Source: an uncultured Candidatus Binatia bacterium (GTDB lineage: Bacteria > Desulfobacterota > Binatia > HRBIN30). From it: a stretch of DNA of 64,000 bases. The notes beneath the pieces were generated by a model, which was given only the letters and a program-made list of their open reading frames with translations, was not told the origin of the DNA and did not search any database. Where the stretch lies: NCBI GenBank assembly GCA_964524885.1, contig CAZGEJ010000003.1, positions 97,994 through 161,993 on the forward strand, given 5' to 3'. Below, one piece after another: positions 11,443-61,362 of this stretch; within the stretch, counting starts at the first letter, position 1, and the number at the start of each line of letters is the position of its first letter. The position numbers and the translations under genes were made by a program.

Positions 11443-11553
11443 CGGAAGTTCCTCCTCTCGACGCGGGCGCGGGTGCCGCGCGCCGGGTACCTGCCTCGTA
11501 GCAGATACGAACGCCGGCGTAGAGGAAAAGGGCCCCCCCGGCCAGCGCTGGCG

Positions 11554-18033: not shown

Positions 18034-19308
18034 CTAGCGCCGACGGCGGGCTTCGACCAGCGCCAGATACCGCTCGACGAAACGTTCCTCGCTGTAATCG
18101 GTGGTGTACGCCTGCCGCGCCTGCTCGGCCAACTGCCGGCGTGTCGTCGGCTCGTCCCGTAAGCGATCGACGGCTGCGGCGAGTTGCGACTCGTGGCGAA
18201 ACGTCAGGCCTCCACCGTGATCCTCGATGAACTCGGCGAGCCCGCTGTGGTCACGAACGATCACGGGTGTGCCGGCGGCGAACGATTCGATCACGACCAG
18301 GCCGAAGGTCTCGAAGCAACGCGACGGCACGATGGTCGCGACTGCCCCGGCATACCAGGGCGCCAGGGCGTTAGCGTCGAGTAACCCGAGCATCCGGACA
18401 TTGGGCGTGCGCCGCGCCTCGTCCGCCAGCCGATCGCCCAAGCGACCCGCGCCGGCGATGACCAAGTCGATGTCGCGCCGCTGGCGAAACACCGACAGCA
18501 AGTCCTCGACTCCCTTTTCGGGTTCGAGGCGGCCGGCGAAGAGGAAGTAGGGTCGGTCGGCAGCGCGACGGACGCTGGGCGCTTGAGGATCGAGCGGATC
18601 GGCATCACAGAAGAGAGGCAGATGGACGATGTCGCCAGCGAGGCCGCGCCGGCGATGCTCCGCCGCGGTGGCACGGCTCGGGGCCAGGAACACGTCGACG
18701 GGTTCGCAGGCGCGCTGCAGCCGACCGACGGAGCGCCACAGCTGCGGCGGCCGCCCGGCATGCAAGGTACAGGCGGCACACGTGGGACGGGTGCAGGCCT
18801 CACGTCCAAAGCGCCAGAGGTCGTGGCGCGGACAGACGAGCCAATGATCACTGAGCGTGCACAACTTGAGAGCGCGGCCGAAGCGAAACGCCTCCAGGCC
18901 GCCCATCATCGAGGGGTTGTTGAAGTGGATGACGTCGTAGTTCTCCGCATCGAGCCAACGGCGCAGCGCCGAGCGCAGCGGCGCAGCGGTTCCGGCCTGG
19001 TGCATCCACAACAGGCCGAGGGCCCCGCCCGTGGCGTCGAGCGGCACGACGTCGATGTTGGGGTGGCGGCGCACCGCACCCATGGGGGGATGCCGGGCGA
19101 GAACGGAAAAGGCGGTACGATCGTGCAGCACGCGCACGAAGTGGCCACGCGCGGCGAGAGCGTGCGCCAGGCGTTCGGCGAAGATGGCATCGCCGCCGAA
19201 GTGGTACGGTGGGTAGAAGGTCGTGACGATACAGACGCGCAAGCAAGGCCGAGCGCCCACCGCGCCGACGTCCCCGGCCGTCGCACCGATCGCTTCGCTC
19301 GTCCGCAT
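18034..19308 (-). CDS. GT4-family (GT-B) glycosyltransferase with a Cys-cluster insertion
   Basis: N-terminal VCIVTTFYPPYHFGGDAIFAERLAHALAARGH is typical of GT4 (MshA/BshA-like). C-terminal E-x7-E region (FETFGLVVIESFAAGTPVI). The insertion CPRHDLWRFGREACTRPTCAACTLH carries four Cys. Confidence 0.75.
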   Translation of the reverse strand: MRTSEAIGATAGDVGAVGARPCLRVCIVTTFYPPYHFGGDAIFAERLAHALAARGHFVRVLHDRTAFSVLARHPPMGAVRRHPNIDVVPLDATGGALGLLWMHQAGTAAPLRSALRRWLDAENYDVIHFNNPSMMGGLEAFRFGRALKLCTLSDHWLVCPRHDLWRFGREACTRPTCAACTLHAGRPPQLWRSVGRLQRACEPVDVFLAPSRATAAEHRRRGLAGDIVHLPLFCDADPLDPQAPSVRRAADRPYFLFAGRLEPEKGVEDLLSVFRQRRDIDLVIAGAGRLGDRLADEARRTPNVRMLGLLDANALAPWYAGAVATIVPSRCFETFGLVVIESFAAGTPVIVRDHSGLAEFIEDHGGGLTFRHESQLAAAVDRLRDEPTTRRQLAEQARQAYTTDYSEERFVERYLALVEARRRR

Positions 19309-19491
19309 GATTCGTTCGAGTCTGGTCGACCCTCGTCGCGATGGCAACCACGTACCGCGCGCAGCGAACGCGACGGCGCGCCATCCCCGAAAGGCCAGCG
19401 ATGTAGGCGAGCGACCCGCCACGGCTTCGCCGCGAAATAGCCATTGACTTCGCTGCCCTCGGGCGGTCTGTTGAGGCACAGCCAGGTTGCC

Positions 19492-21624
19492 ATGTCGAAT
19501 TCGCTGCGTTCGTACCTCACGTCGGTCCCCCTCCTTGCCGTGCTCGTGGGCCTCGGCCAAGCGCCTCCTTCATTGGCGGCACCTTGGCTCGCCGTCGGCC
19601 CGGAGGGCGCACCCGTCTTGTCGATCGGAATCGAGAGCGGCAGCAACACCAACCTCGTCGCCACGGTGCGCGATCGCGGCCTACTCCGCAGTGTCGATGG
19701 TGGCGCGTCGTGGCAGGAGGTAGTCAGCAGTCCGTCGCCGGCACTGCGCGTCGCGGTGCATCCGAGCAATGCGGCGCTGGCGGTGAGTACCGCGTCACAG
19801 GTGTGGTTTCGCCTCGCCGGCGACAGCCGCTGGCTGGCGTCGAAACTGAGCCCCGCCGACGTGATCGCCATCGGGCCGGGCGAGCCGGTCAGCGTGTACG
19901 GCGCGCGCGGCAGCTCGATCCAGCGCGCCATCGGCGAAGGGGCGGCGGTTTCCATCGCCGACGGACTGGCTGGCGCGCGCGTGCGCACGCTGCGGTTCGA
20001 CCCCATTCGCCCGACACGCCTGTACGCCGGGACCAACGACGGGCTGTTCCTTTCGCAGGATCGAGGCACGAACTGGTCCCGCGCCGGCAACGCCCTGGCG
20101 GGCGTCGACATCGTCGCGGTCGCCACCGATCCCCGCCAAGCGAGCCGGCTGTTCGCCGGCGGCAGCGACAGCGGCGTGTGGCGCAGCAGCGACTCGGGGG
20201 CGACGTGGGTTCGCATCAACGACGGGTTGGCCGACCTGCGCATCCGCGACCTGGCGGTCGACGGCAGCGTCGCCGGTCGAGTGTGGGCGGGCACCGAGGA
20301 CGGCATCTTCGTTTCGAACGATCACGGCGCTTCGTGGAGCCGTGCCGACCTCGAGCCGCGAGCGCCGGTCCTCGGCGTGGTCGCCGGCGCAGCGGGCGGT
20401 CTAGCGTACGTCGCCACCAGCACGGGCCTGGTGGTCACCGACGATGCCGGAGCGAGTTGGCAGCCGGCCAACGGCGGCTTGCTGGCGACGACGGTCACGG
20501 CTCTGCAGATGCTCGGCGACGACCCGCGCGAGGTCGTCGCCGGCACCTCCGGCGGAGTCTTCGTCAGCTTCGACGCGGGCGGGCAGTGGTCTAGCTTGAA
20601 CGAAGGCCTACGCAGCCCGCTGGTGCAGGATCTCGCCATGGTCGGCACGGACCTGTTCGCCGCCACGCTGGCCGGGGCGTGGCGCCTGCCCGGCTTGGGG
20701 CAGGCGTGGTCGCGCTTGAACGGCATCACCAATCCGGCGGTGACCTCGGTGGTGGCCGACGGGGCGCTGGCGGATCGGCTCTACGCCGCGACCGCCGGTG
20801 GGGGGATTTTCCGCAGTAGCGACGCCGGTGCCACCTGGCGCGCGGCCAATACCGGCGTCAGCAGCCTGTTCCTCACCCGACTGGCAGCCGTGCCGGGGGT
20901 CCCAGGAGAAATCTACGCCCTCGCCGCCAACCAGGTGATCGTCACCCGCAACGGCGGCGACAGCTGGACGGTCGCCGGCCCTCTGCCCGCAGGGACGATC
21001 GCGGACTTGGTCGTGTCGCCGCACGCGGCGTCACTCTTGTTCCTCGCCACCTCGACCGGCGTGCGTCGCAGCCGCGACGCTGGACAGAGCTGGCAAGAAA
21101 CCGGCTTGAGCGGGCTGAGCGTCGAGTCGCTGCTCGCCTCGGCACGTGCGCCTGGACTGGTGTACGCCGGCCTGCGCGGCGGCAGCATCCGCGTCAGCTT
21201 CGACGACGGCACCAACTGGCAGAGGCTGGGTGGGGCCGGACCGTTGGGTTCAGTTCTCACCATGGCCGAGGCCGCGGACGGCAGCCAATTCTTCGCCGGG
21301 ACGCGCGACGCCGGCGCCTGGGTCGCGCAGCAACTCTGCGGCGACGGTGAACTCGACCCCGGCGAGACCTGCGACGATGGCGGCAACGGCAGTTGCCCCG
21401 CCGGCTGCGGCGCGACGAGCCGCTGCGTCGGCGACTGCAACGGCAGCGGCGACGTCACCGTCGACGAGATCGTCCGCGGGGTGTCGATCGGCTTGGGCAT
21501 CGCCGAAGTCGGGGGCTGCACGGCGATGGATCGAAACGGCGACCGACTCGTCACCGTCGACGAGATCATCGCCGCCGTAGCCAACGCCTTGGGCGGCTGT
21601 CGCGACGCGACGTTGGCGAACTGA
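19492..21624 (+). CDS. Secreted BNR/Asp-box beta-propeller protein (about 10 repeats) with a C-terminal dockerin-like double EF-hand module
   Basis: Signal peptide (MSNSLRSYLTSVPLLAVLVGLGQAPPSLAAP). Ten S-x-D-x-G-x-[ST]-W repeats (SVDGGASW, SQDRGTNW, SSDSGATW, SNDHGASW, TDDAGASW, SFDAGGQW, SSDAGATW, TRNGGDSW, SRDAGQSW, SFDDGTNW). C-terminal GDCNGSGDVTVDEIV...DRNGDRLVTVDEII. Confidence 0.7.
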   Translation: MSNSLRSYLTSVPLLAVLVGLGQAPPSLAAPWLAVGPEGAPVLSIGIESGSNTNLVATVRDRGLLRSVDGGASWQEVVSSPSPALRVAVHPSNAALAVSTASQVWFRLAGDSRWLASKLSPADVIAIGPGEPVSVYGARGSSIQRAIGEGAAVSIADGLAGARVRTLRFDPIRPTRLYAGTNDGLFLSQDRGTNWSRAGNALAGVDIVAVATDPRQASRLFAGGSDSGVWRSSDSGATWVRINDGLADLRIRDLAVDGSVAGRVWAGTEDGIFVSNDHGASWSRADLEPRAPVLGVVAGAAGGLAYVATSTGLVVTDDAGASWQPANGGLLATTVTALQMLGDDPREVVAGTSGGVFVSFDAGGQWSSLNEGLRSPLVQDLAMVGTDLFAATLAGAWRLPGLGQAWSRLNGITNPAVTSVVADGALADRLYAATAGGGIFRSSDAGATWRAANTGVSSLFLTRLAAVPGVPGEIYALAANQVIVTRNGGDSWTVAGPLPAGTIADLVVSPHAASLLFLATSTGVRRSRDAGQSWQETGLSGLSVESLLASARAPGLVYAGLRGGSIRVSFDDGTNWQRLGGAGPLGSVLTMAEAADGSQFFAGTRDAGAWVAQQLCGDGELDPGETCDDGGNGSCPAGCGATSRCVGDCNGSGDVTVDEIVRGVSIGLGIAEVGGCTAMDRNGDRLVTVDEIIAAVANALGGCRDATLAN

Positions 21625-21734
21625 CGCGGCCGCCCGGTCGGGCGGATCATTCGACCGTTGGCGCACAAAAGCATTGCGTTCCGGCCCGATCCTGCCAAGG
21701 CTGCCGATCGATACCGATCCAACTGGGAGTAGCG

Positions 21735-23729
21735 ATGCGACGATTGGGAGCCGTGCGCGGCTGGAAGTTCGTGTTGGTTATGAGCGTCGCCCTGGCGCTG
21801 CCGGTCGCGGCCGGTGCGGAGGACTGCGGCGAGGGTAGCTACGACAGCACCTTCGAGCTGATCCAAGACGTCGTCTTCGAGAAATACGGCTGCACGACCG
21901 CGGTCTGTCACGGGGTTTACGCGGCCGGCGGACTCGACCTGTCGCCGGCCGTGGCCTACCGCAACCTCGTCGACCAAGTGGCGACGACGGTTCCGGGCAT
22001 CAGCCGCCTGTTGCCCGGACAGAAGGACCAGAGCCTGCTGTGGCTCAACCTCGCGGCCAAGACGCTGCCGGAGGAAGTGCATGCGCCGCTGCGCCCCATG
22101 CCCCTCGATCCGGTGCCGGCACTGACGCCGGACCATCTGGAGTTGATGCGCGCCTGGATCGAATCCGGCGCCCCGGAAACCGGCACCGTCGCCGCGGCGG
22201 TCGGCCTGGTCGACGCCTGCCTACCGGCGCCCGAGCCGCTCACCGTAGAGCCGTTGCCGCCGCCCGCCCCGGGCAAGGGCGTGCAGGTGCGCATGCCTCC
22301 CTACGAACTGGGGCCGCAGAGCGAGCGCGAAACCTGCTTTGCCAGCTGGATCGACCTCACCGACCAGGTGCCGGAACAATATCGCGGCGCCGACGGCAGC
22401 ACCTTCCGCTTCAAGCTCAACCGCGTGCGGCAGACGCCGATGAGCCATCACCTGATCGTCAGCATGTACGAGGGCACAGCCTCGCCCGACGATGACCGGT
22501 GGGGCGAGTTCTTCTGCGCCGGCGGCGACAAACATGGCCAGCGATGTGCGCCGACCGACCTCGACTTTTGCGGCGACGGACTGTGCTCGACCATCCCGTC
22601 GAACAGCATTGCCTGCACCGGCTTCGGCCCCGGCGACTCCGGCCTCGGCATCGCCTCCTCGGGCTTCAGCGGCACCCAGGAGACGGCCTCGGAATTCCGC
22701 TTCGCCGAAGGGGTCTACGGCGAGTTGCCGATGCGCGGCATGGTCTTGTGGAACTCGCACGTCTTCAACCTCACGGACAAACCCGGCACCCTCGAGGCCT
22801 GGCTCAACTTCGAGTTCGCCGAACCGGAAGAACAGTTGTACCCGGCCCGCACGATCTTCGACGCCAAGGACATTTTCGCCACCAACGCGCCCGCCTTCTC
22901 CACCGACGAACCGTGCAGCCTGCACGAGTTGCCGCGCAACGCGCACCTGTTCGAGCTGAGTTCGCACGGCCATCGCCACATGAAGCGCTGGCGCACCTAC
23001 ATCGGGGCGTTCACCTGCCAAGGCGGCCCAGCCGTCGGCCAGGCCTGTTCCCCCCTCGGCTACGACTTCGATAGCCGCGACGTCTGCGAAGGGTTCCCCT
23101 GCGCGGCGCCCGAACGCGCCCACGTCGGCGACTGCGACGCCAGCGGCGACGTCACCGTCGACGAGGTGCTCACGGCGGCCAACATCGCCCTCGGCAGCAG
23201 CCCGATCGGCCGCTGCGTCGACGCCGACCGCGACTTCGACGACGTCATCACCGTCGATGAGCTGCTGACGGCAGTCAGCGCGGCGCTGACCGGCGTGCCG
23301 GCGACGACGCTGCGGGATGCCTCGGACAGCTTGGTGTACACCAGCCTGATCTACAACGACCCGGTGGTGCTGCGTTTCGACGACACGCCGCTGGTGTTCG
23401 CCTCGCACTTCCCTGAGGAACGAACCCTCACCTATTGCGCTCTCTTCGACAACGGACGGATCGATCCGACCGAGGTGAAGCGGCGCAGCACGTCACCGCC
23501 ACCGCCGGCCGACGTGCTGCCGGTCGGAGGCCCGTGTGACGAACCGACCCACTGTACGGACGGCAAGGTCGGCGAACCCTGCGTCGGACGCACCGAGCGG
23601 GCCCGCCACGCCTCGTGCGACAGCACTCCGGGCGCCGGTGACGGCATGTGCGACGCCTGCACCCTGACGGGCGGGGTGACGACGGAGGACGAGATGTTCA
23701 TTCTGATGGGGCAGTATTACGTGCCGTAG
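21735..23729 (+). CDS. Secreted His-rich monooxygenase-like protein, paralog 1 (tentatively PHM/DBH-like copper enzyme), with CX4CH motif and an internal dockerin-like module
   Basis: Signal peptide; YGCTTAVCHG; MSHHLIV (HH); NSHVFN; SSHGHRHMKRW (HxH...M). GDCDASGDVTVDEVL...DADRDFDDVITVDELL inserted before a Cys-rich C-terminal domain. 60-70% identical by eye to the downstream paralog. Confidence 0.55.
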   Translation: MRRLGAVRGWKFVLVMSVALALPVAAGAEDCGEGSYDSTFELIQDVVFEKYGCTTAVCHGVYAAGGLDLSPAVAYRNLVDQVATTVPGISRLLPGQKDQSLLWLNLAAKTLPEEVHAPLRPMPLDPVPALTPDHLELMRAWIESGAPETGTVAAAVGLVDACLPAPEPLTVEPLPPPAPGKGVQVRMPPYELGPQSERETCFASWIDLTDQVPEQYRGADGSTFRFKLNRVRQTPMSHHLIVSMYEGTASPDDDRWGEFFCAGGDKHGQRCAPTDLDFCGDGLCSTIPSNSIACTGFGPGDSGLGIASSGFSGTQETASEFRFAEGVYGELPMRGMVLWNSHVFNLTDKPGTLEAWLNFEFAEPEEQLYPARTIFDAKDIFATNAPAFSTDEPCSLHELPRNAHLFELSSHGHRHMKRWRTYIGAFTCQGGPAVGQACSPLGYDFDSRDVCEGFPCAAPERAHVGDCDASGDVTVDEVLTAANIALGSSPIGRCVDADRDFDDVITVDELLTAVSAALTGVPATTLRDASDSLVYTSLIYNDPVVLRFDDTPLVFASHFPEERTLTYCALFDNGRIDPTEVKRRSTSPPPPADVLPVGGPCDEPTHCTDGKVGEPCVGRTERARHASCDSTPGAGDGMCDACTLTGGVTTEDEMFILMGQYYVP

Positions 23730-23731
23730 AG

Positions 23732-23770
23732 AGGCTTAGGCTTAGGCTGAGGCTTAGGCTGAGGCTGAGG
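23732..23770. repeat. Tandem hexamer array (GGCTTA/GGCTGA), about 6.5 copies, immediately 3' of monooxygenase-like paralog 1
   Basis: The sequence directly after the TAG stop reads gaggcttaggcttaggctgaggcttaggctgaggctgagg. Confidence 0.9.
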
Positions 23771-23840
23771 GGCGTTGATCGGGTGGGACTTCTGGGTCAA
23801 CATCCGAGATCATTCACGTTCGTTGGACCAAGGAGATTCC

Positions 23841-25829
23841 ATGCGGATTCGCGACTTCGCGGTAGGGGCGATGGCCGCGGTCCTGCTCGGCACTGGGCCA
23901 GTCCTCGCCGAGGACTGTGACCCGGAGAGCGCCGGCAGTACCTGGCAGCTCATCCAGAGCGCCATTTTCGAGAAGAACGGCTGCACCACGGCCATCTGCC
24001 ACGGCAGCGTCGCCGCCGGCGGCGGCTTGGACCTGTCGCCCGCGGTGGCTTACGACAACCTCGTCGACGTCATGGGCGGCAGCGTGCCGACCATCCGTCG
24101 CGTCTTCCCCGGTGAGAAGGACCGCAGCTTGTTGTGGCTCAACCTCGCCGCCAAAACGCTGCCCGACGAATACACCGCGCCGCTGCGACCGATGCCGGCT
24201 GATCCGCTGCCGGCACTGACCGAAGACGAGCTCGAACTCGTGCGCCTGTGGATCGAGGGCGGCGCCCCGGAAGAGGGGACTGTGCGCGGCACCGAGGACT
24301 TCGATCCCTGCCTCCCCGAGCCCGAACCGATCCCCGTCAAGCCGCTGCCGCCGCCGGCCCCCGACGAGGGCTTCCAAATCCGCATGCCCCCCCGGCCATT
24401 GCCGCCGAACAGCGAGAGTGAAGTCTGCTACGCCACCTACTACGACGTCAGCGCCCAGGTGCCGGAGAAGTTCCGCGGCCCGGACGGCACGACCGTGCGC
24501 TACAAGCGCAATTCGATCCGCCAGGACAGCTCGAGCCACCACCTCATCGTCAACCTGTACGAGGGCAGTTCCGGCGTCGACGACCCCGAGTGGGGCGCCT
24601 GGAAATGCCGCGGCGGAGCGCGCGAAGGCCAGGCCTGCAACCCGCTGGACCTAGGCGTGTGCGGTGAGGGCGGCGAGTGCGCCACGCCCGTCGTGTCGGG
24701 GGTGGCCTGCATCGGCTACGGCCCGCCGGACGCCGGCACCGGCCTGATGAACGCCGGACTCTCCGGCTTGCAGGAGTCCGCCGGCACCTTCGAGTTCGCG
24801 CCGGGCGTGTTCCGCGAGATGCCGCTGAAGGGCATCATCCTGTGGAACTCGCACGCCTTCAATCTCGACGCTCAGCCGAGCAAGGTCGAAGCCTGGCTCA
24901 ACTTCGAGTTCGCCCAACCCGAAGAACAAGAGGCCGAGGCGATGCAGATCTTCGGGGCCGACGAAATCTTCAAGATGAACGCGGAGCCGTTCCAAACCGA
25001 CGAGCCGTGCAACATCGAGATCCTGCCGCCCAAGGCACAACTCTTCGAACTCAGCTCCCACATGCACCAGCGCGGCAAACGCTGGCGCACCTTCCTCGGC
25101 GCCTTCCGCTGCGAGGGTGGACGCAACACCGGAGCCCCGTGCTCGCCGCTGGGCTACGACTTCAGCAGCCGCAATCCCTGCGGCAACAACGGCCGCTGCG
25201 TCTCGCGCGTGCGCAGCCGCGCCGGCGACTGTAACCGCAGCGGCGACGTCACCGTCGATGAGGTCATCACCGGGGTCAACATCGCCCTGGGCACCGCCTC
25301 GGTCGACACCTGCTTCGACGCCGACCGCGACTACAGCGAGTCCGTCTCGGTCGACGAGGTCGTGACCTCGGTCACGGCCGCCCTGCAAGGCGTGCCGCCG
25401 GCGGTCGAGCGCAACCCCGAGGAAAGCCTGCTGTACACGAGTTTCGTCTACAATGACCCGGTTTACGTCCGGTACGACCCACCGATGGCGTTCCCCGGCC
25501 GCGGTTCGGAGGCGGACGAACGCGCCCTCACGTACTGCGCCCTGTACGACAACGGGCACACCGACCCGGCGACGGTAAAGCGCAAGTCGACCTCGCCGAA
25601 TCCGCCAGTGAGCTTCCCCGGCATCGGCGGCCCCTGCGATACCCCGAGCCACTGCACCGAGGGCAAGGTCGGGGCCGAGTGCAACGGCCGCACCGAGCGG
25701 GCGCGCGATGCCTCGTGCGACAGCACCACCGGCGCGGGCGATGGCCGCTGCGACGCGTGTACGCTCACCGGCGGCGTGACGACCGAGGACGAGATGCTGC
25801 TGCTCCTCGGCCAGTACTTCGTGCGCTGA
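23841..25829 (+). CDS. Secreted His-rich monooxygenase-like protein, paralog 2
   Basis: Same architecture: NGCTTAICHG, SSHHLIV, SSHMHQRGKRW, GDCNRSGDVTVDEVI...DADRDYSESVSVDEVV, and the same C-terminal Cys pattern (CTEGKVGAECNGRTERARDASCDSTTGAGDGRCDACTLTGG). AAGGAGA RBS before the ATG. Confidence 0.55.
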   Translation: MRIRDFAVGAMAAVLLGTGPVLAEDCDPESAGSTWQLIQSAIFEKNGCTTAICHGSVAAGGGLDLSPAVAYDNLVDVMGGSVPTIRRVFPGEKDRSLLWLNLAAKTLPDEYTAPLRPMPADPLPALTEDELELVRLWIEGGAPEEGTVRGTEDFDPCLPEPEPIPVKPLPPPAPDEGFQIRMPPRPLPPNSESEVCYATYYDVSAQVPEKFRGPDGTTVRYKRNSIRQDSSSHHLIVNLYEGSSGVDDPEWGAWKCRGGAREGQACNPLDLGVCGEGGECATPVVSGVACIGYGPPDAGTGLMNAGLSGLQESAGTFEFAPGVFREMPLKGIILWNSHAFNLDAQPSKVEAWLNFEFAQPEEQEAEAMQIFGADEIFKMNAEPFQTDEPCNIEILPPKAQLFELSSHMHQRGKRWRTFLGAFRCEGGRNTGAPCSPLGYDFSSRNPCGNNGRCVSRVRSRAGDCNRSGDVTVDEVITGVNIALGTASVDTCFDADRDYSESVSVDEVVTSVTAALQGVPPAVERNPEESLLYTSFVYNDPVYVRYDPPMAFPGRGSEADERALTYCALYDNGHTDPATVKRKSTSPNPPVSFPGIGGPCDTPSHCTEGKVGAECNGRTERARDASCDSTTGAGDGRCDACTLTGGVTTEDEMLLLLGQYFVR

Positions 25830-25830
25830 C

Positions 25831-25922
25831 GCGAAGGCTGAGCCAAAGTCCAAGGCTGAGGCTGAGTTCGGAGAGCGGTTTCCGAACCTCAGCCTCAGCC
25901 TCAGCCTCAGCCTCAGCCTAAG
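25831..25922. repeat. Inverted hexamer arrays: (GGCTGA)x2, spacer, (TCAGCC)x5, forming a long hairpin 3' of paralog 2
   Basis: The sequence reads aaggctgag...caaggctgaggctgagttcggagagcggtttccgaacctcagcctcagcctcagcctcagcctcagcctaagcc. The stem has at least 20 bp. It is the same hexamer family as 23732-23770. Confidence 0.9.
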
Positions 25923-26027
25923 CCTTTGCCCCGACCAATTCTGTCGAAATTCTGATTGCCTCGCCCCCCGGCGCTGGCGTAGAACGTAGCGTCGTCTCGA
26001 TCTACGCCGGAACCGAAGGGGGCCTTG

Positions 26028-29000
26028 ATGTTGCTGAACCGACTCCGGTTGGGTTTGCTCGCCACGTGTGTTGCCATTTCCTGGACTGCCCTCGCCGAGG
26101 CGCAGACCCTGACCAAGGGCGACGAATCGTGCCGCTCGACGCTCGCCAAGAGCGTGCTCAAACTCACCCGAACCTCCCTCCGAGAACAGGCCCAGTGCCA
26201 CCGCCTGCGCATGCTCGCGGCCCTGCCCTCCTCGGTAGAATGCAACGACTTCGATAGTTTGCCGGAGAATTCACGCGACAAGATCGAGGGCGTCGTCGCC
26301 AAGCTACGCAGCAAGGCGGCGCGCGGCTGCCGCGCCGCTTCCTTGCCGGCGGGCAACGGCTACACCACCTGCCCGGCGCCCTGCGACGGCATCGCCGTCA
26401 CCAACTACGACGGGGTCGGCTCCTGCCTCGCTTGCCTCGTGCGCGACCGCGTCGACGCCACCGGCGTCATCATTTACGGCACGCCGCCGACGCCGGGCAC
26501 CGAAACCGACGAACAAAGCTGCCAGAACAGCCTCGCCGCCGCCCTCGAGACGCATTTCAAGGGCCGCTTCGGCGAACAGATCCGCTGCCAGAAGAAGCAG
26601 GACAAAGGCAAGCTCGCGGCGGGCATCGACTGCAAAACCTATGACCCCAAAGGCAAGCTGGCGCGCAAACGGGAACAGGGCGAGGCGCAGGTCGACCGCT
26701 GCGTCCTCGACTCCATCGTCGCCCAACTCGACAGCTGCGCCAGCACCCTCCCCGGCGAACGCGCCTGTCTCGGCGATGCCGTCGAGGAGTACTCCGACAC
26801 CCTCTTCGACTACGTCTTCCCGCCCGAGCCCACGCCGACGCCCACTCCTTCGCCTACCCCCGCGCCTCTCGACTGCCGGGACGGCAACGAATGCGTACTC
26901 ATGGAAGTGCAGCCCGGCCCGAGTGAACTCGGACCGACCGACGACGGACGGTCCAGTTGGTACAAGATCACCAACATCGTCGCCTTCCTGGGATTCAACG
27001 CCAACAACGGCTCGAAGGGCAATTTCGAGGTCGGCCCACTGATCTTGGAAAAGGGCCTCAGCCTCGACGGCGACGGACGCACGAGCCTCGTCTTGGCGGA
27101 GCCCGCCATCCTCGGCGCCTCCTTCCCCGCCGCCTCCGGCCGCCCCGGACGCGTGTGCTTCGAAATCACCCAGGTCAGCGGCCAGCCCGGCTGGGTCGAC
27201 TGCAACGGCGGCTCCAACGCCGACGTCAGCCTCAGCATCGACAGCAACGGTACCGCCGCCGCGTCGCCCTCCTCGATCCTCGTCGCCTCCGGCGCGAGCG
27301 ACTCCGGTCCAGGGGCCGCGCTGCTCCACGTCGACATCCGCATCAGCGCAACCACCAACGCGATCGACCCTTGCTCGGCCGCCAATTTCACCAATGCGCC
27401 GGTCGTCCGCACGGCCCTGACGACGGCCACCGCGGTCAGTAGCGTCAGCGAAACGCGCCAAAACGTCGAATCGCCGACGTTCCACCCGAACGCCACGGTC
27501 GACGTCACTCTCACCGGACAGCCCCTCGATTGCGCCAACTTTGGCCCTGGGATGCGCAGCAGCTTCGTCGCTCCGGTCTACGAGCTGGATACGACCCCCG
27601 GGGTCGTCGCCGGCCGTTTCGACCTGGCGGACGTGCTGCGCCTCGACATGATCGCCGCCAATACTGAACCGGGCGCGCCGACGTCGACGCCGACCGAAAC
27701 GCCGACCGAACCGGCTCCCACGCCGACCCCGACGCCCGCCGCGCCCACGCCGACGCCTGAGCCCGTCCTCTGCCCCCCTGGCCTCACCTGCGCCGCCTTC
27801 GACATCCTCCCCGGCTCCGGCGCACTCCTGCCCGTCGACGACGGCGTCTCGACTTGGCTGCGCATCTTCGACTTCACCGGCGGCAGCCTGTTCGCCAATG
27901 CCACCAACGGCGCCTTCGGACCGGGTCCGGTCATCTTCGGCCTGGGCGCCACCGACGGCAACGGCATCGCCCCGCTGCGGTTGGTCGGCACCACCTACCT
28001 CGGCGCCAACTTCGTCAGCGCGGCGCAGGATCTGGGCCAGCAAGGCACGATCTGCGTCAAGCTCGAACCCGATCCCGTCAACGAGGGCTGGATCGACTGC
28101 GACGGCGGTACCAACGGCAGCGCCAGTCTGGCGGTCGACAGCAACCTGTCGAACCCGCCGCCACCCAACCCGGTGCCACTGCTCGACGTGCCCGCCGCCG
28201 CCGACGGCGGCGCCGCCGCGGGCACGGGCGTCGCCCGCATTCTGGCGTCGTTCGTCGTCGCGCCGGCGAATGACGCCGCTTGCAATACCCTCGACTATTC
28301 CAGCTCACCGGTCATCGCTACGGCCCTCACCACCGGCCAGGCCACCAGCTTGGTGACCAACGACGTCATCGACGGCAACGGCCCCGCCTCCGCCGGCGTC
28401 AACCAAACCTCACTCTCCGGTAGCCCCTTCTCCTGTGCCGCATGGGGCGACCCGAATGGAGCCTCGGCCAGCGTCGTCGCCCCGCTCTTCGCCCTCGACT
28501 TCGTCGCCCCGGTGCTCAACCTCACCGTCGACGTGTCGCAGGCCTTCCGCCTACAGCTCGACCCCGTGAATCTGCCGACCGGCGACGAAACGCCGACGCC
28601 GACGCGCACCGACACCCCGACCACGACGCCGACGGAAACGCCGACACGCACGCCGACGCGCACCGTCACCCCGACGCGTACCCCGACGTTCACCCCGACC
28701 GACACGCCGACGGTCACCCCGACCGCCACGCCCACCGAGACACCGACCGAGACGGCGACGCCGACGATCACGCCGACGCCGACGAACACCGCGACGCCGA
28801 CCGCGACCTTCACGCCCTTCGGCCCGCCGGTGCGCAACGTCACCATCATCGACAACACCAGCCAACTGGAACGTGGCACCCAAGCCCTCGGCAACTGCTT
28901 CCGCCGCGGCCAGACCAGTTCTTCCGTCCTATCCTCGACCGGCACCAGCTTCTCGACGCAGTTCCGCTCCAACGTCACCACCGACTGCGAGGCCGTGCCC

Positions 29001-30530
29001 ACCGGCGGCGGCAGCTTCACCGGCAACCTGACGCCGAACTACACGATCCAGTTCGACATCGCCTGCCCGGCCGGCGCTGCCTATACGCTCACCGTCAACA
29101 CCTCCTCGGGCGGTGCCTTGACCGTCAACCGCGACAACGGCGACGGCTGCGATCTGCCCTTCTTCGGCACCACCGACCAGTCGACCGCCTTCATGTCGGC
29201 CATCAGCGGCAGCAATAGCGGCGGGACACTGCAAAGCGCCGGCACGCTCAACCTCGACGCACCGGGTTCGCTGGTCTCCAGTAACGACAGCAACACCGCC
29301 TTCAGCGACAGCAACAGCGCCGTCATCACCGGCGTCGGCACCGGCGCCCCGGTCGCCCACTCGCTCACCTTCAACTGGTCGACCTCCTGCGTCAGCAGCG
29401 GCAATAGCCTCGACACCGGAGCCGAGTGCAGCGTCCGCTTCGGACGTGACTCCGACCTCGAGCCGAACGGCATCTCCGGCTGCATGACGGCCGACGACTA
29501 CCCCGGCGTCGGCAGCCGCTCGACCGCCAGCGACGGCCATATCGTCAGCTTGTCGGCAAGCTGCGGCGCCACGCCCACGCCGACGATCACCCACACCCCG
29601 ACGATCACGCCGACGCCGACGGTCACGCCGACCAACACGCCGACGATCACCCCCGGTGGCCCAACCCTGACACCGACACCGTTGGCCACCGCCACAGCGA
29701 CGGCCACGGCGACCGCCGAACCGCTGGGCACTCTCAACTTCAGCGTCGTCACCGGCCCCGGCGGCAGCGATACCGCCCCCGGCTGCCCAGGTGAGCCTTC
29801 CAACGGCTCGCTCCTCAAGACCCAGGGCAATCCGACCGGCGGCATCCCGGGCACCATCTGCAACGGCACCAAGGGCGACTTCTACATGCTCGGCGGACCC
29901 ATGCAGCTGAGCGGCGGCTCCCCCGACGCCAACGGCATCGCCGATCTCAGCATCGTCGCCCCCGTCGTCGTCGGCGCCAGCCTCCCCGGCTCGACCCCCA
30001 ATTGCAGCAACTGCGACGCTTGCTGGCGCATCGAACAGGATGCCACCGTCGGCTTCGTCGACTGCGACGGCGGCTCCAACGCCAGCGTCTCGGTGACCAT
30101 CGACAGCAACGGCTCCAGTGCCCCGCCCGCCCCCGCCAATGGTCCGTACCTCCTCGGCAGCGGCAATACCGGCAGCGGCGCCGCCGTGCTGAATGCGATC
30201 ATCAAGCGCAAAACCGTCACCGGTTCGTGCCCCGGACCGTCCGACTCGTCCTGGAACTCGCCCGACAGCACCGTGTCGGCGTACCTGGTCACCGGCAGCG
30301 CCACCTCGACGATCGACGACCGCCGCCAGTGCAGCGGCAGCACCTTCGGCACGGCCTGTCCCTCGAACAACCCGTATACGGTGACGCTCAGCGGCACTAA
30401 CCTGAACTGCAACACCTGGGCCGAGAACACCGGTGCACGCTTCGTCGTGCCGTTCCAGAATCTCGACCAGGTCATCGGCGGCAGCTTCGGCAACGGCGAC
30501 ATCGCCCAAGTCCTGCGCCTGAACGACTGA
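26028..30530 (+). CDS. Giant secreted modular protein, 1501 aa, with Thr/Pro-rich linkers and three homologous modules (scaffoldin-like architecture)
   Basis: Signal peptide ([28 protein letters not shown]). Four (TP)n linkers, up to about 75 aa ([23 protein letters not shown]...). Three homologous modules carry the conserved core [VI]C..[IL]...[GW][WF][VI]DC[ND]GG[ST]N[AG][SD][VA]SL[SAT][IV]DSN. They are separated by a distinct Ser/Thr/Asn-rich module. Cys-rich N-terminal domain. Confidence 0.7.
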
Positions 30531-30639
30531 TCTCCGGCCAAGCCTTCGCTACCCAGCGGCCACCGTCAACGACCGTGGCCGCTGGGTGGCGGGGCCCGTG
30601 CGCGTTGACTCGCGCCTCTCGCCGCCACTACAGAGCGGT

Positions 30640-31827
30640 ATGGCCAGCCACAGCTCGAATCGCCAACGCCTGTTCGCCCCCGCCCGCCTCGGGCCGGTCG
30701 AGCTGCGCAACCGTTTCGTCAAGTGCGCCACCTACGAGACGCGCGGCAAAACGGGCCTCGTGACCGACGACCTCATCGCCTGGCATCGCCAATTCGCCCG
30801 CGGCGGCGTCGGCATGACCACCCTCGCCTATTGCGCCGTCGCCGACGACGGCAAGACCTTCCCCGACCAGATCAGCGTCAAGCCCGCAGCCGTTCCCGGC
30901 CTGCGACGCTTCACCGACGCCATCCACGCCGAAGGCGCGGCCGCAGCGATTCAGCTCGGGCATGCCGGTTGGTTCGCCGACCCGTCGGCCACCGGCACCC
31001 GCCCTCTCGGGCCGAGCGCCATGTTCGCGCCCAAGGGCATGACCTGGTCGCGTGCCCTGACGTCGAGCGATCTGGCGCGCCTCACCGACGACTTCGCGCG
31101 CGCCGCGCAGCTCGCCGTCGATGCCGGCTTCGACGCCCTCGAAGTCCACGTCGGCCACGGCTACCTGCTCAGCCAGTTTCTCAGCCCCTACAACAACCGG
31201 CGCCAAGACGAGTTCGGCGGCAGCATCGAAAACCGCGCCCGCTTCCCGCGCCAAGTCGTGCAGGCGGTGCGCCAAGCCGTCGGCAAGCGCGCCGCGGTCT
31301 ACATCAAGCTCAACATGGAGGACGGCTTTCGCGGCGGCCTGACGCGGGACGACGGACTGGAGGTGGCGCGTCTGTTCGAGGCCGACGCCTGCCTCGACGC
31401 GATCCAGCTCACCGGCGGTCACACGACGAAAACACCGATGTTCCTGATGCGCGGCGAGACACCGACGCGCGAATTGGTGCAGATCCAACCGACGCGACTG
31501 AAGCGCTGGATCATGGGTTTCGTCCTGCCCAGGGTGATCCGCAGCTATCGCTTCGAGGAGGCCTTCTTCGAGCCGACCGCGCGCCAGTTCCGCGCCGCCG
31601 TCGGCTTACCCTTGATGCTCCTCGGTGGCGTGACGCAGCTCGCCTCGATGGAACGTGCCATGGATGCCGGCTTCGACTTCATCGCCATGGGGCGCGCCCT
31701 GATCCGCAACCCCGATCTGGTGCGCCGCATGGAAGCCGGCAACCTCGCCGGTAGCACCTGCGTGCCGTGCAACCAGTGCATGGCCTACGTCGGCATCCGC
31801 CCGACCGTGTGCTACCGCGCGCACTGA
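30640..31827 (+). CDS. NADH:flavin oxidoreductase (Old Yellow Enzyme family)
   Basis: HGAHGYLLSQFLSP-type motif (HVGHGYLLSQFLSPYNNRRQDEFGGSIENR) and a TIM-barrel OYE layout. Confidence 0.85.
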   Translation: MASHSSNRQRLFAPARLGPVELRNRFVKCATYETRGKTGLVTDDLIAWHRQFARGGVGMTTLAYCAVADDGKTFPDQISVKPAAVPGLRRFTDAIHAEGAAAAIQLGHAGWFADPSATGTRPLGPSAMFAPKGMTWSRALTSSDLARLTDDFARAAQLAVDAGFDALEVHVGHGYLLSQFLSPYNNRRQDEFGGSIENRARFPRQVVQAVRQAVGKRAAVYIKLNMEDGFRGGLTRDDGLEVARLFEADACLDAIQLTGGHTTKTPMFLMRGETPTRELVQIQPTRLKRWIMGFVLPRVIRSYRFEEAFFEPTARQFRAAVGLPLMLLGGVTQLASMERAMDAGFDFIAMGRALIRNPDLVRRMEAGNLAGSTCVPCNQCMAYVGIRPTVCYRAH

Positions 31828-31832
31828 CGCGG

Positions 31833-32249
31833 CTATTGCAGGACGTGCAGTAGGTTGGCGCGCGTCGCCACACTGGACAGCGGCGTGCGATAGATGGGCA
31901 ACATCGCCAACGCGAACGCGACGACGATCGCCGCCCACACCCACACGCGCAGCCGCGCCGCGCCGAGGCGCGCCCGCCCCCACCGCACCAGGCGACGGAT
32001 GACCAAGGCCAGCAGCCCGGCGTAGAGCAACCCGGGGAGCAAGCTGAAGGCGACGATCAGCCCCGGCACCAGATCGCCCTCGGCCCACCACACCGCCGCG
32101 GTGGCGCCGCCCAGAGCCCCCATGCGCAGCACCGGGGCGAACTCCCACTCGAAGACGAAATAAGGCAACGGAACGGTGAGCAACGCCGTCAGCCACAGGG
32201 CAAAGGTCAAGGCACGCCCTCCCGCGGATGCGTCGCGCGCCGTCATCAT
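31833..32249 (-). CDS. Small integral membrane protein (about 138 aa), translationally coupled to the upstream DUF3604 gene
   Basis: Four hydrophobic segments (ALTFALWLTALLTVPLPYFVF; LIVAFSLLPGLLYAGLLALVI; WVWAAIVVAFALAML). Its ATG overlaps the stop of the preceding gene (ATGA) at 32246-32249. Confidence 0.5.
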   Translation of the reverse strand: MMTARDASAGGRALTFALWLTALLTVPLPYFVFEWEFAPVLRMGALGGATAAVWWAEGDLVPGLIVAFSLLPGLLYAGLLALVIRRLVRWGRARLGAARLRVWVWAAIVVAFALAMLPIYRTPLSSVATRANLLHVLQ

Positions 32250-34168
32250 GGTTGCCCCCCCGAGCCCCGCGGCGCCTGCCACCAGATCGGCGAGGTCCAC
32301 GCCCGCTCCTGGATCACCCGCGGGTAACGCGGGTCGCAGCAGGCGGCGAAGTCGTCGGCAATGGTTTCCGGACGGTCGCAGTCGACCCCGGCCGCGTTGC
32401 ACAAATAGGTGCTCCACCGGCACGACGGGTTCTCGACGACGCGGGCATAATAGAATGCGGGCTGTGCCGAATCGAAGCTCGGATCGCGCCACACCCGACA
32501 TAGCCGGTCGAAGCCGCCGCCGCGCGCTTCGCAGGTGCGTGGATCCACCGACGCGCCGTTGTCCGGATCGCCGGCCACCTCGAACACGCGCTCGTGGGTC
32601 GCGCCGCCGGCATCGACCCAGCCCTTGACGATTTGCACGCGCTGCAGCGGCATCCCGGGACCGTCGGTACCGCCGAGATCGCGCAAAGCCGAGACCAGGA
32701 ACGTGGGGGCCGCGGCGGTGGCCGGCGGCAGCACGCCGCCCATCGGCACGCCGCCGGCATAGCCCTTTTCGATCCAGGCGGGATCGTCGCACAGCGCATC
32801 GGGATACTCCCAGCCGCCGAAGAAGCGCACCACCAGGCGTGGCCCACTGGTGCCGTACGCCTCGCGCCGACGCATGGCGGCGAACAACGCCGGGCGCGAG
32901 TTTTCCTCGGCCCACAGTACGGCCAAGCCGCCGGCGTTGAACTCGATGTCGTCGGGAAGGCCGCGCGGCAATTCTCCCGGCGCGCCGGTGCCCGCACCGC
33001 CGTGGCCGAGATGCGCCGCCTCACGCACGTAGCCACTGGTGCCGAGATGCGTGTCCGTGCTGGCGATCAGACCGAAGGCGAACGGATTGACGCCCACCTC
33101 GCGTTCGAGACGCAGTCCTTCCTTGAGCACGTTGCGAACGAAGCCGATCGCCGGCGGCGCCTCGGCGAGCAAGCCGACGAACTTCCCCTGAAAGTTGTCG
33201 TAGGGCAGCTTCTCGAAACCGCAGAGTTCGTCTTCCGTCTCCGGACCGAGGCGACATTCCGAATCGCCCTTGTGTTGCATCACCTCGACCAGCGGCTCGT
33301 TGGTGATACGTTCGGCAGCCGTCGCCGCCGTCAACGGGCGACCGGCCGCATCGACGCTTTCGAACATGATGCCGCCGCTGAGATTGCTGTTGTGCGGGAT
33401 GCTGACGAAATCACAACCGGCGATGGCATCGTTGCAGGTGGCGCGCAAGCGTCGCCACAGCCCCTCCGGCGTCGGCTCGTCCATGTAGCTCACCGGCAAC
33501 TCGGGCACGGCGGCGTCATTGAATAGGATGTTGCGGTGGATGTTGTTGGTGTCCGGTCCGCCGGTCCATTCGTAGCCGACGAACGAAGTGAAGCGGCACG
33601 CTTCGCTGCGATCGTAGGCGTCCTCGGCGGCTTCGCGCACCTCGCGCCAGGGCGTCCGCGCCGCAGCGAGACAATCCCGTCCTTCCGGCCCGCAAAACGA
33701 GAAGCGTTCCGGCTGGCGCGAGCGCGTCGAACGCGCATTCATGAAGAAGAACGCCAGCCGCGGCCACCAGCGATAGACCCGACAGGTCGCCGAGTCGTAG
33801 CCCGGGCTGCCCGGCGTGCGGCAGAGTTCCAGTTCGCCGAAGAGTTCGGCGTGGTCGGTGACCGCGGCGAAATCGAGAGGGCGATCGAGACGGACGCTGC
33901 GTCGCGGCGTGCCGTCGGCCGCATACGGTTGCAGGCCGATCGTCTCGCCCCGCGCGAACCGGTAGGCGTCGCGCGGCAAATTGCGCGTCCCCTGGGTATT
34001 GGCATCGAGCGAGAGGGCGGTGTGCACGTGCAGGTCGCCGAAGAACGGACGTCGCAGAGCCGTGTGCTCGCGGCACGGAGCGCGCTCCTCGGCGTGCGCC
34101 GACGCGGCGAGGACGAGTGCCGCGAGGGTCGCGCCGAGATGCAGCCGACGGCGAAACGTACGATTCAC
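32246..34168 (-). CDS. Secreted DUF3604-family protein (PHP-like metal-dependent hydrolase-like)
   Basis: Signal peptide (MNRTFRRRLHLGATLAALVLAASAHA), then the GDLHVHTALSLD motif that I recall as the hallmark of DUF3604. About 640 aa. Confidence 0.65.
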   Translation of the reverse strand: MNRTFRRRLHLGATLAALVLAASAHAEERAPCREHTALRRPFFGDLHVHTALSLDANTQGTRNLPRDAYRFARGETIGLQPYAADGTPRRSVRLDRPLDFAAVTDHAELFGELELCRTPGSPGYDSATCRVYRWWPRLAFFFMNARSTRSRQPERFSFCGPEGRDCLAAARTPWREVREAAEDAYDRSEACRFTSFVGYEWTGGPDTNNIHRNILFNDAAVPELPVSYMDEPTPEGLWRRLRATCNDAIAGCDFVSIPHNSNLSGGIMFESVDAAGRPLTAATAAERITNEPLVEVMQHKGDSECRLGPETEDELCGFEKLPYDNFQGKFVGLLAEAPPAIGFVRNVLKEGLRLEREVGVNPFAFGLIASTDTHLGTSGYVREAAHLGHGGAGTGAPGELPRGLPDDIEFNAGGLAVLWAEENSRPALFAAMRRREAYGTSGPRLVVRFFGGWEYPDALCDDPAWIEKGYAGGVPMGGVLPPATAAAPTFLVSALRDLGGTDGPGMPLQRVQIVKGWVDAGGATHERVFEVAGDPDNGASVDPRTCEARGGGFDRLCRVWRDPSFDSAQPAFYYARVVENPSCRWSTYLCNAAGVDCDRPETIADDFAACCDPRYPRVIQERAWTSPIWWQAPRGSGGQP

Positions 34169-40316: not shown

Positions 40317-40326
40317 GCTCGGCTCA

Positions 40327-41136: not shown

Positions 41137-41214
41137 GCAGCAGAACTACCAAACAAAATCTCCATTGACAAGCAAACAATTCTTGTTCAGCCTGCAGTCA
41201 GGAAGGAGCTTCGC

Positions 41215-61259: not shown

Positions 61260-61362
61260 GGGCGTCGGAGGATAGCAGGCGGAAACGGCGTGCATAGCAA
61301 TCGCCCCGGGGGTGAACAAACCGCGCGTTGAGGCGCCGGGGTGGATTCGCTAGGTTCGCCGC

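Follow-up and report, generated by a model that had tools for sequence, protein, structure and literature searches.

Non-cellulosomal dockerin-like modules were reportedly described by Peer et al. in 2009, a study cited in PMC13487519 and PMC8542988. In the scaffoldin CipA of C. thermocellum, cohesins 3-8 share more than 94% mutual identity (bioRxiv 10.64898/2026.01.19.700288), and a cellulosome-like system has been inferred for Ca. Stygibacter (Cloacimonadota), in which dockerin proteins occur together with a large scaffoldin-like protein with tandem cohesins recognizable by Pfam (PMC8542988). The Binatia are a widespread uncultured phylum with predicted capacity for methylotrophy and alkane degradation (PMC8262859). 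Our literature searches yielded no paper connecting Binatota with dockerins, and dockerin, cohesin and EF-hand are all absent from the text of the Binatota genome paper.

Here, we analyze four consecutive genes within a 64,000-nt stretch of a Candidatus Binatia contig (the window), in which three putatively secreted proteins share a short dockerin-like module and are followed by a 1501-aa multi-module protein. The preliminary description took this arrangement for a cellulosome-like assembly; in our assessment, the locus is probably a run of secreted-protein genes in a Candidatus Binatia genome, and not a cohesin-dockerin operon.

The shared module and its carriers

The four ORFs, confirmed by ORF calling and all located on the forward strand (Table 1), are separated by gaps of 110-195 bp. 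No terminator-like site was found in these gaps by a promoter/terminator scan, which is uninformative with regard to operon structure; adjacency on the same strand in one genome remains compatible with co-expression. Signal peptides of the locus proteins were assigned by eye, and point to probable secretion.

Table 1. Features of the four-gene locus, in window coordinates
Feature	Position	Strand	Basis or remarks
Putatively secreted BNR/Sortilin-Vps10-type propeller protein, 710 aa	19492..21624	+	Pfam, NCBIfam, Asp-boxes
Dockerin-like two-loop putative Ca module, C-terminus of BNR protein	21427..21600	+	Profile match 1.1e-22
Paralog 1, 664 aa, signal peptide, predicted PHM/DBH-fold copper monooxygenase core, internal module	21735..23729	+	
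Dockerin-like module inserted in paralog 1, aa ~463-521	23121..23297	+	Motif scan and profile scan
Paralog 2, 662 aa, architecture as in paralog 1	23841..25829	+	
Dockerin-like module inserted in paralog 2	25218..25394	+	Profile match 2e-28
Putatively secreted non-catalytic multi-module protein, 1501 aa	26025..30530	+	ORF; no Pfam family
Predicted beta-barrel module A, aa 282-548	26868..27668	+	
Predicted beta-barrel module B, aa 581-855	27765..28589	+	30-34% identical to A and C
Distinct middle domain, aa ~932-1185, without homology to A-C	28818..29579	+	Conserved 59-63% in orthologues
Predicted beta-barrel module C, aa 1230-1501, protein C-terminus (…AQVLRLND)	29712..30527	+	

The propeller protein has Pfam matches to PF15902 (Sortilin-Vps10; 1.9e-21) and BNR (4.5e-15), an NCBIfam match exceeding the family cut-off (F510_1955 family, 3e-53), and 10 Asp-box motifs; it also contains a Cys-rich acidic stretch and ends in the dockerin-like module. 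The next two genes code for paralogs with 59% end-to-end identity that do not match any Pfam or NCBIfam family, Cu2_monooxygen included. When the locus proteins were compared with the PDB by phmmer, all matches were attributable to chance or low complexity. Their core is predicted to form a two-domain beta-sandwich as in the copper type II ascorbate-dependent monooxygenases peptidylglycine alpha-hydroxylating monooxygenase (PHM) and dopamine beta-hydroxylase (DBH), and in an alignment of 59 sequences six candidate ligand residues (H238, H239, H342, H411, H413 and M654) are invariant and follow the order expected for the CuH (His, His, His) and CuM (His, His, Met) sets. In paralog 1, the core is preceded by a cytochrome c-like N-terminal domain (about aa 30-145) with a CX4CH motif. 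At least 367 proteins belong to this unannotated PHM-fold family with a cytochrome c-like domain, which might supply electrons from within the same protein.

The module spans about 59 aa and consists of two 12-residue loops, putatively Ca-binding, with a helix after each. Motif and profile scans of the six-frame translation place a single copy in each of these three proteins, with no further copy in the window, and the BNR copy is 47% identical to those of the paralogs (BLASTP, E ~1e-14, far above chance). The initial claim of a module common to three consecutive secreted proteins is therefore borne out by motif scan, profile scan and BLASTP alike. Its placement differs, being C-terminal only in the BNR protein and an internal insertion in the paralogs (approximately aa 463-521 of 664). 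This insertion, located in the second, beta-sandwich domain, is present in all 120 homologues among the matches listed, and is ancestral to the paralog family.

The loops of the BNR module read DCNGSGDVTVDE and DRNGDRLVTVDE. The two loops span residues 4-15 and 36-47 of the module; Asp at loop position 1 and Glu at position 12 are invariant, position 3 is Asp or Asn, and position 5 is Ser or Asp. Val/Ile-Asp is found at positions 10-11 of both loops in 28-30 of 32 members of the module family. The offset between the first Asp residues is 32, as counted in the CelS dockerin (2mte_A/1daq_A). The type I dockerin pattern originally ascribed to the loops holds at positions 1, 3 and 5, but Gly at position 6 is confined to the first loop, and Glu at position 12 is typical of canonical EF-hands, as opposed to Asp in the CelS and CelD dockerin sequences retrieved by PDB search. 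Each module also has two to four conserved cysteines, some of which are invariant.

The AF2 model of the paralog 1 module (pLDDT ~90) consists of a loop-helix unit, short helices, and another loop-helix unit, with helices at residues 475-485 and 507-519 following the loops and coil ahead of loop 1. This predicted fold fits solved dockerins better than four-helix EF-hand pairs, and supports a dockerin-like architecture for the shared module as far as structure prediction can be relied upon. Sequence comparison, in contrast, places it nearer to EF-hands than to dockerins. Dockerin_1 (PF00404) matched neither the three whole proteins at E <= 1 nor the isolated modules at E <= 10, and the only Pfam matches of the three modules were sub-threshold ones to EF-hands (a weak EF-hand_1 match of 7.6e-5 for the BNR copy); calmodulins ranked first when the module profile was compared with the PDB, and hhalign assigned 45% probability to calmodulin versus 13% to two C. 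thermocellum dockerins (CelS/CelD). The proposed dockerin identity thus stands with respect to architecture and predicted fold, but lacks the profile match. It may be added that a few relatives do have precomputed PF00404 matches, and that some Binatia records bear the title “dockerin type I domain-containing protein” (P0307).

The 1501-aa protein and its barrel domain

The product of the fourth gene begins with a Cys-rich N-terminal domain, followed by modules A and B, the distinct middle domain, and module C, with Thr/Pro linkers in between. As the preliminary description had noted, three of its modules are homologous (about 265 aa each, 30-34% mutual identity), and in being non-catalytic and composed of several linker-joined homologous modules the protein does display a scaffoldin trait. 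The resemblance does not extend to the fold: modules A, B and C are predicted to be closed beta-barrels, unlike the nine-stranded beta-sandwich (jelly-roll) of cohesins, and no cohesin appears among their structural matches. The protein has no significant match to Pfam or NCBIfam families, including cohesin; its sequence matches in the PDB are limited to low-complexity Thr/Pro linkers, and no cohesin family was found among Pfam matches of the large proteins in the window. The scaffoldin interpretation of the repeated modules is accordingly not supported.

Only about 13 true homologues of the 1501-aa protein were found. Every domain is conserved position by position in the orthologues, with orthologous B modules being 67-70% identical. 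The barrel domain itself forms 258 clusters among 1.84 billion representatives, mostly as a single copy. In 114 of 160 proteins it makes up the very end of the chain, and it is found in combination with GH5, S8, lysyl oxidase, BNR and DUF4215 domains. It constitutes an undescribed, unannotated family without a close solved structure, which outside of the 1501-aa protein is mostly found as a single C-terminal appendage of enzymes. PF00404 is matched by two of 64 barrel proteins. The barrel and the dockerin-like module share a chain in 25 of the 160, in one case together with a BNR propeller; such fusions could suggest that the two domains are connected in function.

We also looked at the genomic surroundings of these genes. 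At three loci (L001, L004 and L125), independent orthologues of the 1501-aa gene have unrelated neighbors and no module gene in their flanks; conversely, PHM-like genes elsewhere have no neighbor of the 1501-aa type, and the 0.76 Mb of sequence surrounding 126 dockerin-like modules was found to be free of barrel modules. The order BNR-paralog 1-paralog 2 is retained in only one relative, at 83% identity. In L124, a close relative, the following gene is truncated where the contig ends, and its 481 aa share 87.5% identity with paralog 2. The neighborhood is therefore not conserved as a unit, with the 1501-aa orthologues residing elsewhere, and the 1501-aa protein is likely to be unrelated to the module carriers and not to serve as a scaffold for the module; any role assigned to it can only be putative. 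The occurrence of three carriers in a row is probably explained by tandem paralogs with an ancestral insertion, one additional common carrier, and clustering of carriers.

It could still be argued that the barrels are non-cohesin receptors for the module, and that the four genes specify a scaffolded extracellular enzyme assembly, functioning as a cellulosome would but with no cohesins. The genes are closely spaced on one strand with no intervening terminator-like site, the barrels are repeated and separated by linkers, the barrel-module fusions include the propeller-containing chain, and a dockerin-like predicted fold implies some partner. We nevertheless consider this very unlikely, given that the barrel fold is unrelated to that of cohesins, that barrels and modules do not co-occur either around the three orthologues or around the 126 modules, that the barrel appears much rarer than the module, and that its usual position as a single C-terminal appendage of enzymes is more cargo- or anchor-like. 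The fusion argument is weak, since the module has fusion partners from at least 75 families, and barrels that are only 30-34% alike yet conserved by position differ from the near-identical cohesins 3-8 of CipA. The broader proposition, in which the barrel would be the non-cohesin receptor of a Binatia-wide non-cellulosomal docking system and the locus a new scaffold-plus-enzymes unit, is less probable still.

Distribution and possible role of the module in Binatia

Representative genomes were scanned with a degenerate DNA pattern for the module, which uncovered at least 115 loci, nearly all from Binatia-type MAGs, each MAG contributing 4-10 among the matches listed. Two or more modules are present in 10 of the 115 loci listed, and one locus (L006) has three carriers inside 12 kb. 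Among the 117 carrier ORFs listed, about five are PHM-like, and the module is placed C-terminally in 54, N-terminally in 33 and internally in 25, with Thr/Pro linkers ahead of many C-terminal copies. Eighty carriers match 75 Pfam families, the 25 commonest of which do not include Dockerin_1; carriers comprise propellers, proteases, outer-membrane-type (MtrC-type) cytochromes, beta-helix proteins and PHM-like monooxygenases. Modules of unrelated carriers from different genomes are 45-65% identical. A profile search of 5.8 billion proteins with the module listed only entries of 60-104 aa, eight of which were examined and proved to be mostly fragments consisting of a Thr/Pro linker plus the module, so that this search says little about carrier diversity.

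Overall, the module can be described as an accessory domain that is specific to this lineage and common in it, probably present on dozens of unrelated secreted proteins per Binatia genome, with the carrier number of the source genome being extrapolated from related MAGs. Such a distribution, together with a neighbor unlike a cohesin scaffold and three orthologue loci devoid of carriers, argues against a dedicated cohesin-dockerin gene cluster. The preliminary description had named beforehand what would count against its assembly hypothesis, namely repeats neither cohesin-like in fold nor binding the module, or a generic Ca-binding module scattered over unrelated proteins without a partner; in fold and distribution, this is largely what we observed.

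We favor, at about even chances, a reading in which the module folds with Ca2+ and docks its carriers to a putative common partner. It would represent a lineage-expanded accessory domain, joined to secreted proteins at the N-terminus, at the C-terminus or internally; Ca2+-dependent folding would yield a rigid helical surface, and this surface would dock the carrier to a common partner in the envelope or outside the cell. Sequence features, predicted folds, the spread of the module and the absence of conserved synteny are what the analysis shows, while Ca binding, secretion and docking are inferred.

The module might instead be a partner-less structural element, i.e. a disulfide-stapled EF-hand pair stabilizing or folding secreted proteins in the oxidizing, Ca-containing periplasm or exterior. 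Canonical EF-hand ligands in both loops, including Glu at position 12, fit this possibility, as do the invariant cysteines, EF-hand families as sole Pfam matches, a profile nearest to calmodulin, the insertion conserved in every listed PHM-like homologue, and the failure to find a cohesin or any other partner. A stabilizer would not, however, be expected to form autonomous terminal modules behind flexible Thr/Pro linkers at either end of members of at least 75 families; the identity maintained across unrelated carriers and genomes suggests a shared external constraint, and the predicted fold is closer to a dockerin than to a four-helix EF-hand pair. We regard this explanation as the main alternative, albeit less likely than docking. 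The least probable of all is a sorting or secretion signal, akin to the T9SS C-terminal domain or PEP-CTERM, that an export or attachment machinery would recognize: the carriers all have signal-peptide-like N-termini, are numerous in each genome and often have the module at the extreme C-terminus, but the N-terminal and internal copies, including the one buried in the PHM-like proteins, are a poor fit to a terminal tag, and a sorting machinery was not observed in the vicinity.

Should docking prove true, numerous secreted enzymes of Binatia, putative copper monooxygenases and MtrC-type cytochromes among them, would be assembled or tethered by a dockerin-type interaction without a recognizable cohesin, and in a context other than plant cell-wall degradation. 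For the locus itself, the result mainly corrects an over-reading of a shared module next to a repeat protein.

Comparison with known systems

Comparison with type I dockerins (PF00404; Xyn10B 2CCL_B, CelS 1DAQ/2MTE) shows that both they and the module are built of two loop-helix units without an entering helix, that the 32-residue loop register is the same as in CelS, and that both occur on a variety of unrelated secreted proteins within a single organism, often via Thr/Pro linkers. The module differs in having Glu instead of Asp at position 12, Val-Asp instead of a Ser/Thr pair at positions 10-11, and two to four conserved cysteines, and its three copies at this locus do not match PF00404. 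It is frequently N-terminal or internal, its host is uncultured and lies outside Firmicutes, no cohesin was found, and its carriers are redox enzymes, propellers and proteases, while clostridial dockerins are carried mainly by carbohydrate-active enzymes. In residing on non-cellulolytic secreted proteins outside clostridia, it resembles the non-cellulosomal dockerin-like modules and the Ca. Stygibacter system; the latter, however, has a cohesin protein, whereas none was found at the Binatia locus, where the predicted fold of the candidate scaffold is not that of cohesins.

The 1501-aa protein is similar to CipA-type scaffoldins in being large, non-catalytic, presumably secreted, and composed of repeated modules with Thr/Pro-rich linkers. 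Scaffoldin cohesins, in contrast, are nine-stranded sandwiches of ~150 aa, as opposed to predicted closed barrels of ~265 aa without a Pfam cohesin match; CipA cohesins 3-8 are much more alike than the barrels, and the 1501-aa gene is unlinked to carrier genes in other genomes. The barrel matches, which align over only about half of the module (~120-147 of 267 residues), are YceI-like polyisoprenoid-binding proteins (including S. degradans X158 domain 2x34), PsbO, and the eight-stranded outer-membrane barrels NspA/OmpW/OmpA. Identity to these small closed beta-barrels is 5-13%, and the module is distinguished from them by conserved cysteines, many polar residues, and tandem arrangement in a soluble-looking protein. 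Finally, the paralogs are about 14% identical to PHM/DBH, from which they differ in being bacterial and in having the N-terminal cytochrome c-like domain and the dockerin-like insertion in the second domain.

The four-gene run and its surroundings

The four consecutive plus-strand ORFs in which the preliminary description had proposed a cellulosome-like assembly were found in place at 19492-30530: a BNR propeller protein, in which we counted ten Asp-box motifs, two PHM-like paralogs (cytochrome c-like domain and PHM/DBH-fold core), and a 1501-aa protein, the candidate scaffoldin. Read by eye, the N-terminus of each of the four resembles a signal peptide. The paralogs are 59% identical to each other and match no family in Pfam or NCBIfam. 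The order AMP-binding protein, BNR protein, paralog 1, paralog 2 is retained in a relative with 83% identity, the contig of which stops short of where the 1501-aa gene would lie. Upstream of the BNR gene lies a 1018-aa ORF, whose counterpart in a close relative (L124) has an AMP-binding domain and is likewise located beside the BNR gene; a glycosyltransferase-like ORF occupies the space between this ORF and the BNR gene.

A DUF3604 protein is encoded just downstream of the run; DUF3604 is cargo of the dockerin-like module in 2 of 80 carriers (module-bearing proteins) from other Binatia genomes, and the copy in the window is without the module. GC skew at 26000-32000 is strongly negative (-0.12 to -0.22), coinciding with the Thr/Pro-linker-rich 1501-aa gene, and is probably a codon-composition effect of its ACC/CCG-rich linkers. 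No cohesin or dockerin-like domain was found in any of four other large genes of the window (the first and the last three in the table).

Features of the window and their positions
Feature	Position	Strand	Length (aa)	Family match
SOGP/GH94-type glycoside phosphorylase	3518-6895	-		
ORF upstream of the BNR gene	14175-17231	+	1018	
Glycosyltransferase-like ORF	18034-19560	-		
BNR protein (first ORF of the run)	19492-21624	+	710	Pfam Sortilin-Vps10 and BNR; NCBIfam F510_1955
Paralog 1	21735-23729	+	664	
Paralog 2	23841-25829	+	662	
1501-aa protein	26025-30530	+	1501	
DUF3604 protein	32246-34168	-	640	Pfam DUF3604, 3e-170
Protein with Big_2 domains	39919-44700	+	1593	
Molybdopterin oxidoreductase	48068-50293	+		
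Transcription-repair coupling factor	57690-61319	-		

The predicted calcium-binding module and its carriers

As had been proposed, the BNR protein and both paralogs share a module of about 59 aa with two 12-residue acidic loops, one copy in each, and the six-frame translation of the 64-kb window yielded no further copies outside these three proteins. The BNR module is 47% identical to those of the paralogs (E about 1e-14). The proposed loop pattern D-[DN]-[SD]-G-E stands except that Gly at position 6 is restricted to loop 1, and the likening of position 12 to type I dockerins does not hold: Glu in this position is EF-hand-like, while the CelS and CelD dockerins (PDB search sequences) have Asp. 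Additional cysteines are conserved in the module as well (consensus C-x-GDC…C…GC).

Even as isolated modules, the sequences gave no match to Dockerin_1, and matches to EF-hand profiles were sub-threshold only. Searched against PDB, a single module matched calcyphosin at 2e-4 and, at E 0.21, a single dockerin (2y3n_B); with a 32-sequence profile, calmodulins ranked first (E 0.003-0.2). In hhalign, the probability was 45% for calmodulin and 13% for the CelS and CelD dockerins, which were entered as an alignment and matched the module with both loops in register. Weak as it is, the evidence from sequence leans to the EF-hand side, and on two sequence criteria the module fails as a type I dockerin. 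Structure prediction points the other way. In the AlphaFold model of paralog 1 (59 homologues as input; pLDDT 89.6, pTM 0.82), the module, with a confidence of about 90, consists of a loop, a helix at 475-485, short helices, a second loop and a helix at 507-519, with no helix ahead of loop 1. The loop-to-loop spacing of 32 residues equals that counted in the CelS dockerin sequence; some close relatives of the module are already named [quoted passage not shown] in public records, and a few match PF00404. We conclude that the module, as modeled, represents a variant of the EF-hand loop-helix pair that has the dockerin fold and extra conserved cysteines.

At least 367 proteins make up the paralog family; those with names come from Candidatus Binatia and similar MAGs. 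In both paralogs of the window the module lies within the chain rather than at an end (about aa 463-521); it occupies the identical position in all 120 family members listed, and is therefore an old insertion in this family. A scan of one genome per species with a degenerate DNA pattern for GDC[DN]xxxxVTVDE matched at least 115 loci, nearly all of them in MAGs of Binatia type, where the matches listed number 4-10 per MAG. Only about five of the 117 carrier ORFs listed are PHM-like, and the remainder are alike in the module alone. Among the matches listed, 80 carriers hit 75 Pfam families, including FG-GAP, NHL and lactonase propellers, matrixins, MtrC/MtrF cytochromes, beta-helices, cytochrome P460, DUF3604, kumamolisin, trypsin and NosD. 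Many public “proteins” of 60-104 aa (P0288-P0407; e.g., P0372 and P0314) are made up of a Thr/Pro linker and the module behind it; they are probably pieces that gene calling split off from larger proteins with C-terminal modules, and as such would inflate the apparent count of stand-alone EF-hand or dockerin proteins.

Carrier genes cluster elsewhere too, with different cargo: at 10 of the 115 listed loci, stretches of no more than 8 kb contain two or three modules, and in Ca. Binatia GCA_026004215.1 (locus L006) three module genes lie within 12 kb (modules at 1130-1303, 4921-5094 and 11372-11548), those for a BACON_2-like 402-aa protein and a 1253-aa DUF7619-like protein being located just upstream of a PHM-like gene. 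A run of three carriers that includes two tandem paralogs is therefore not unusual in this lineage.

The module may, with about even probability, dock its carriers to a common partner in a calcium-dependent manner. Such docking is favored because the module behaves autonomously and is joined by flexible linkers to the N- or C-terminus of many unrelated proteins, because it is 45-65% identical across carriers and genomes, and because its predicted fold is that of a dockerin. The main alternative, a partner-less stabiliser, agrees with the canonical EF-hand chemistry, the cysteines and the insertion buried in the PHM-like family; it is somewhat less probable as a role for the module considered by itself, and rather unlikely as a separate rival to our reading of the locus. 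Among the 117 carrier ORFs listed, 54 have the module at the C-terminus, 33 at the N-terminus and 25 at an internal position; a function as a sorting tag is the least probable of the readings weighed.

The barrel domain of the supposed scaffold

The 1501-aa protein does contain three homologous modules separated by long Thr/Pro linkers (A, B and C, at aa 282-548, 581-855 and 1230-1501; mutual identity 30-34%), along with a Cys-rich N-domain and a distinct middle domain, and has no Pfam family. The model of module A (23 module copies as input) is all-beta, with pLDDT 93.6 and pTM 0.91; Foldseek against PDB returned nothing at E ≤ 0.001, with PsbO and YceI at the top of the list. A profile of this barrel domain found only 258 clusters among 1.84 billion representative proteins. 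In 129 of 160 retrieved proteins it is present in one copy, and in 114 of 160 it forms the extreme C-terminus, ending, for example, in …RLND or …LNDD. The domain follows GH5, subtilase, lysyl oxidase, BNR propeller, DUF4215 and other catalytic or non-catalytic domains. It therefore behaves as an enzyme accessory domain rather than a scaffold-dedicated repeat. In P0184 (3034 aa), 30 partial matches cover barrel-profile positions 89-136, the GW[VI]DCDGG region, which suggests that this segment can occur as an independent repeat.

The sole observation keeping the scaffold idea alive is that 25 of the 160 barrel proteins also carry the dockerin-like module. Typically these are small proteins (about 20 of them, about 315-350 aa) composed of signal peptide, module and barrel; the 818-aa P0264 combines a BNR propeller 29% identical to that of the window with a module (aa 467-523) and a barrel (aa 583-783). 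Since at least 75 other families also occur fused to the module, we read the barrel here as one more cargo. That the barrels are non-cohesin receptors for the modules is quite improbable, if less so than a sorting tag.

Genomic context also argues against a scaffold-module system. In three contexts (L001, L004 and L125), full-length orthologues, 52-57% identical to the 1501-aa protein, adjoin unrelated genes, with no dockerin-like module in their flanks; PHM-like genes at L006, L007 and L008 have no barrel-domain neighbor, and a tblastn search of 0.76 Mb around 126 modules, with all parts of the 1501-aa protein as queries, gave no match. Cohesins 3-8 of C. thermocellum CipA are >94% identical to each other (bioRxiv 10.64898/2026.01.19.700288), whereas the barrels are only about 30% identical to each other and are conserved position by position in orthologues (A, 49-53%; B, 67-70%; C, 74-81%).

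The locus and known dockerin systems

The cellulosome-like assembly is not supported, with the fold, domain distribution and genomic context of the 1501-aa protein all against it. Rather than a cohesin-dockerin operon, the locus is likely to represent three neighbors sharing a promiscuous dockerin-fold calcium module typical of the Binatia secretome, next to an unrelated multi-barrel protein. Some interest is added by the new barrel domain, by the question of the module receptor, and by the unannotated cytochrome-PHM fusion family; our literature search found no description of bacterial enzymes like paralogs 1 and 2.

Dockerin-like modules outside cellulosomes, reportedly described by Peer et al. 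in 2009 (a study cited in PMC13487519 and PMC8542988), are a known phenomenon. In Cloacimonadota, a cellulosome-like system with real cohesins was inferred (PMC8542988). Compared with type I dockerins, the Binatia module forms a subtype in sequence, marked by Glu at position 12, Val-Asp at positions 10-11 and the conserved cysteines; strong expansion in Binatia, non-carbohydrate cargo and often N-terminal or internal placement set it apart further.
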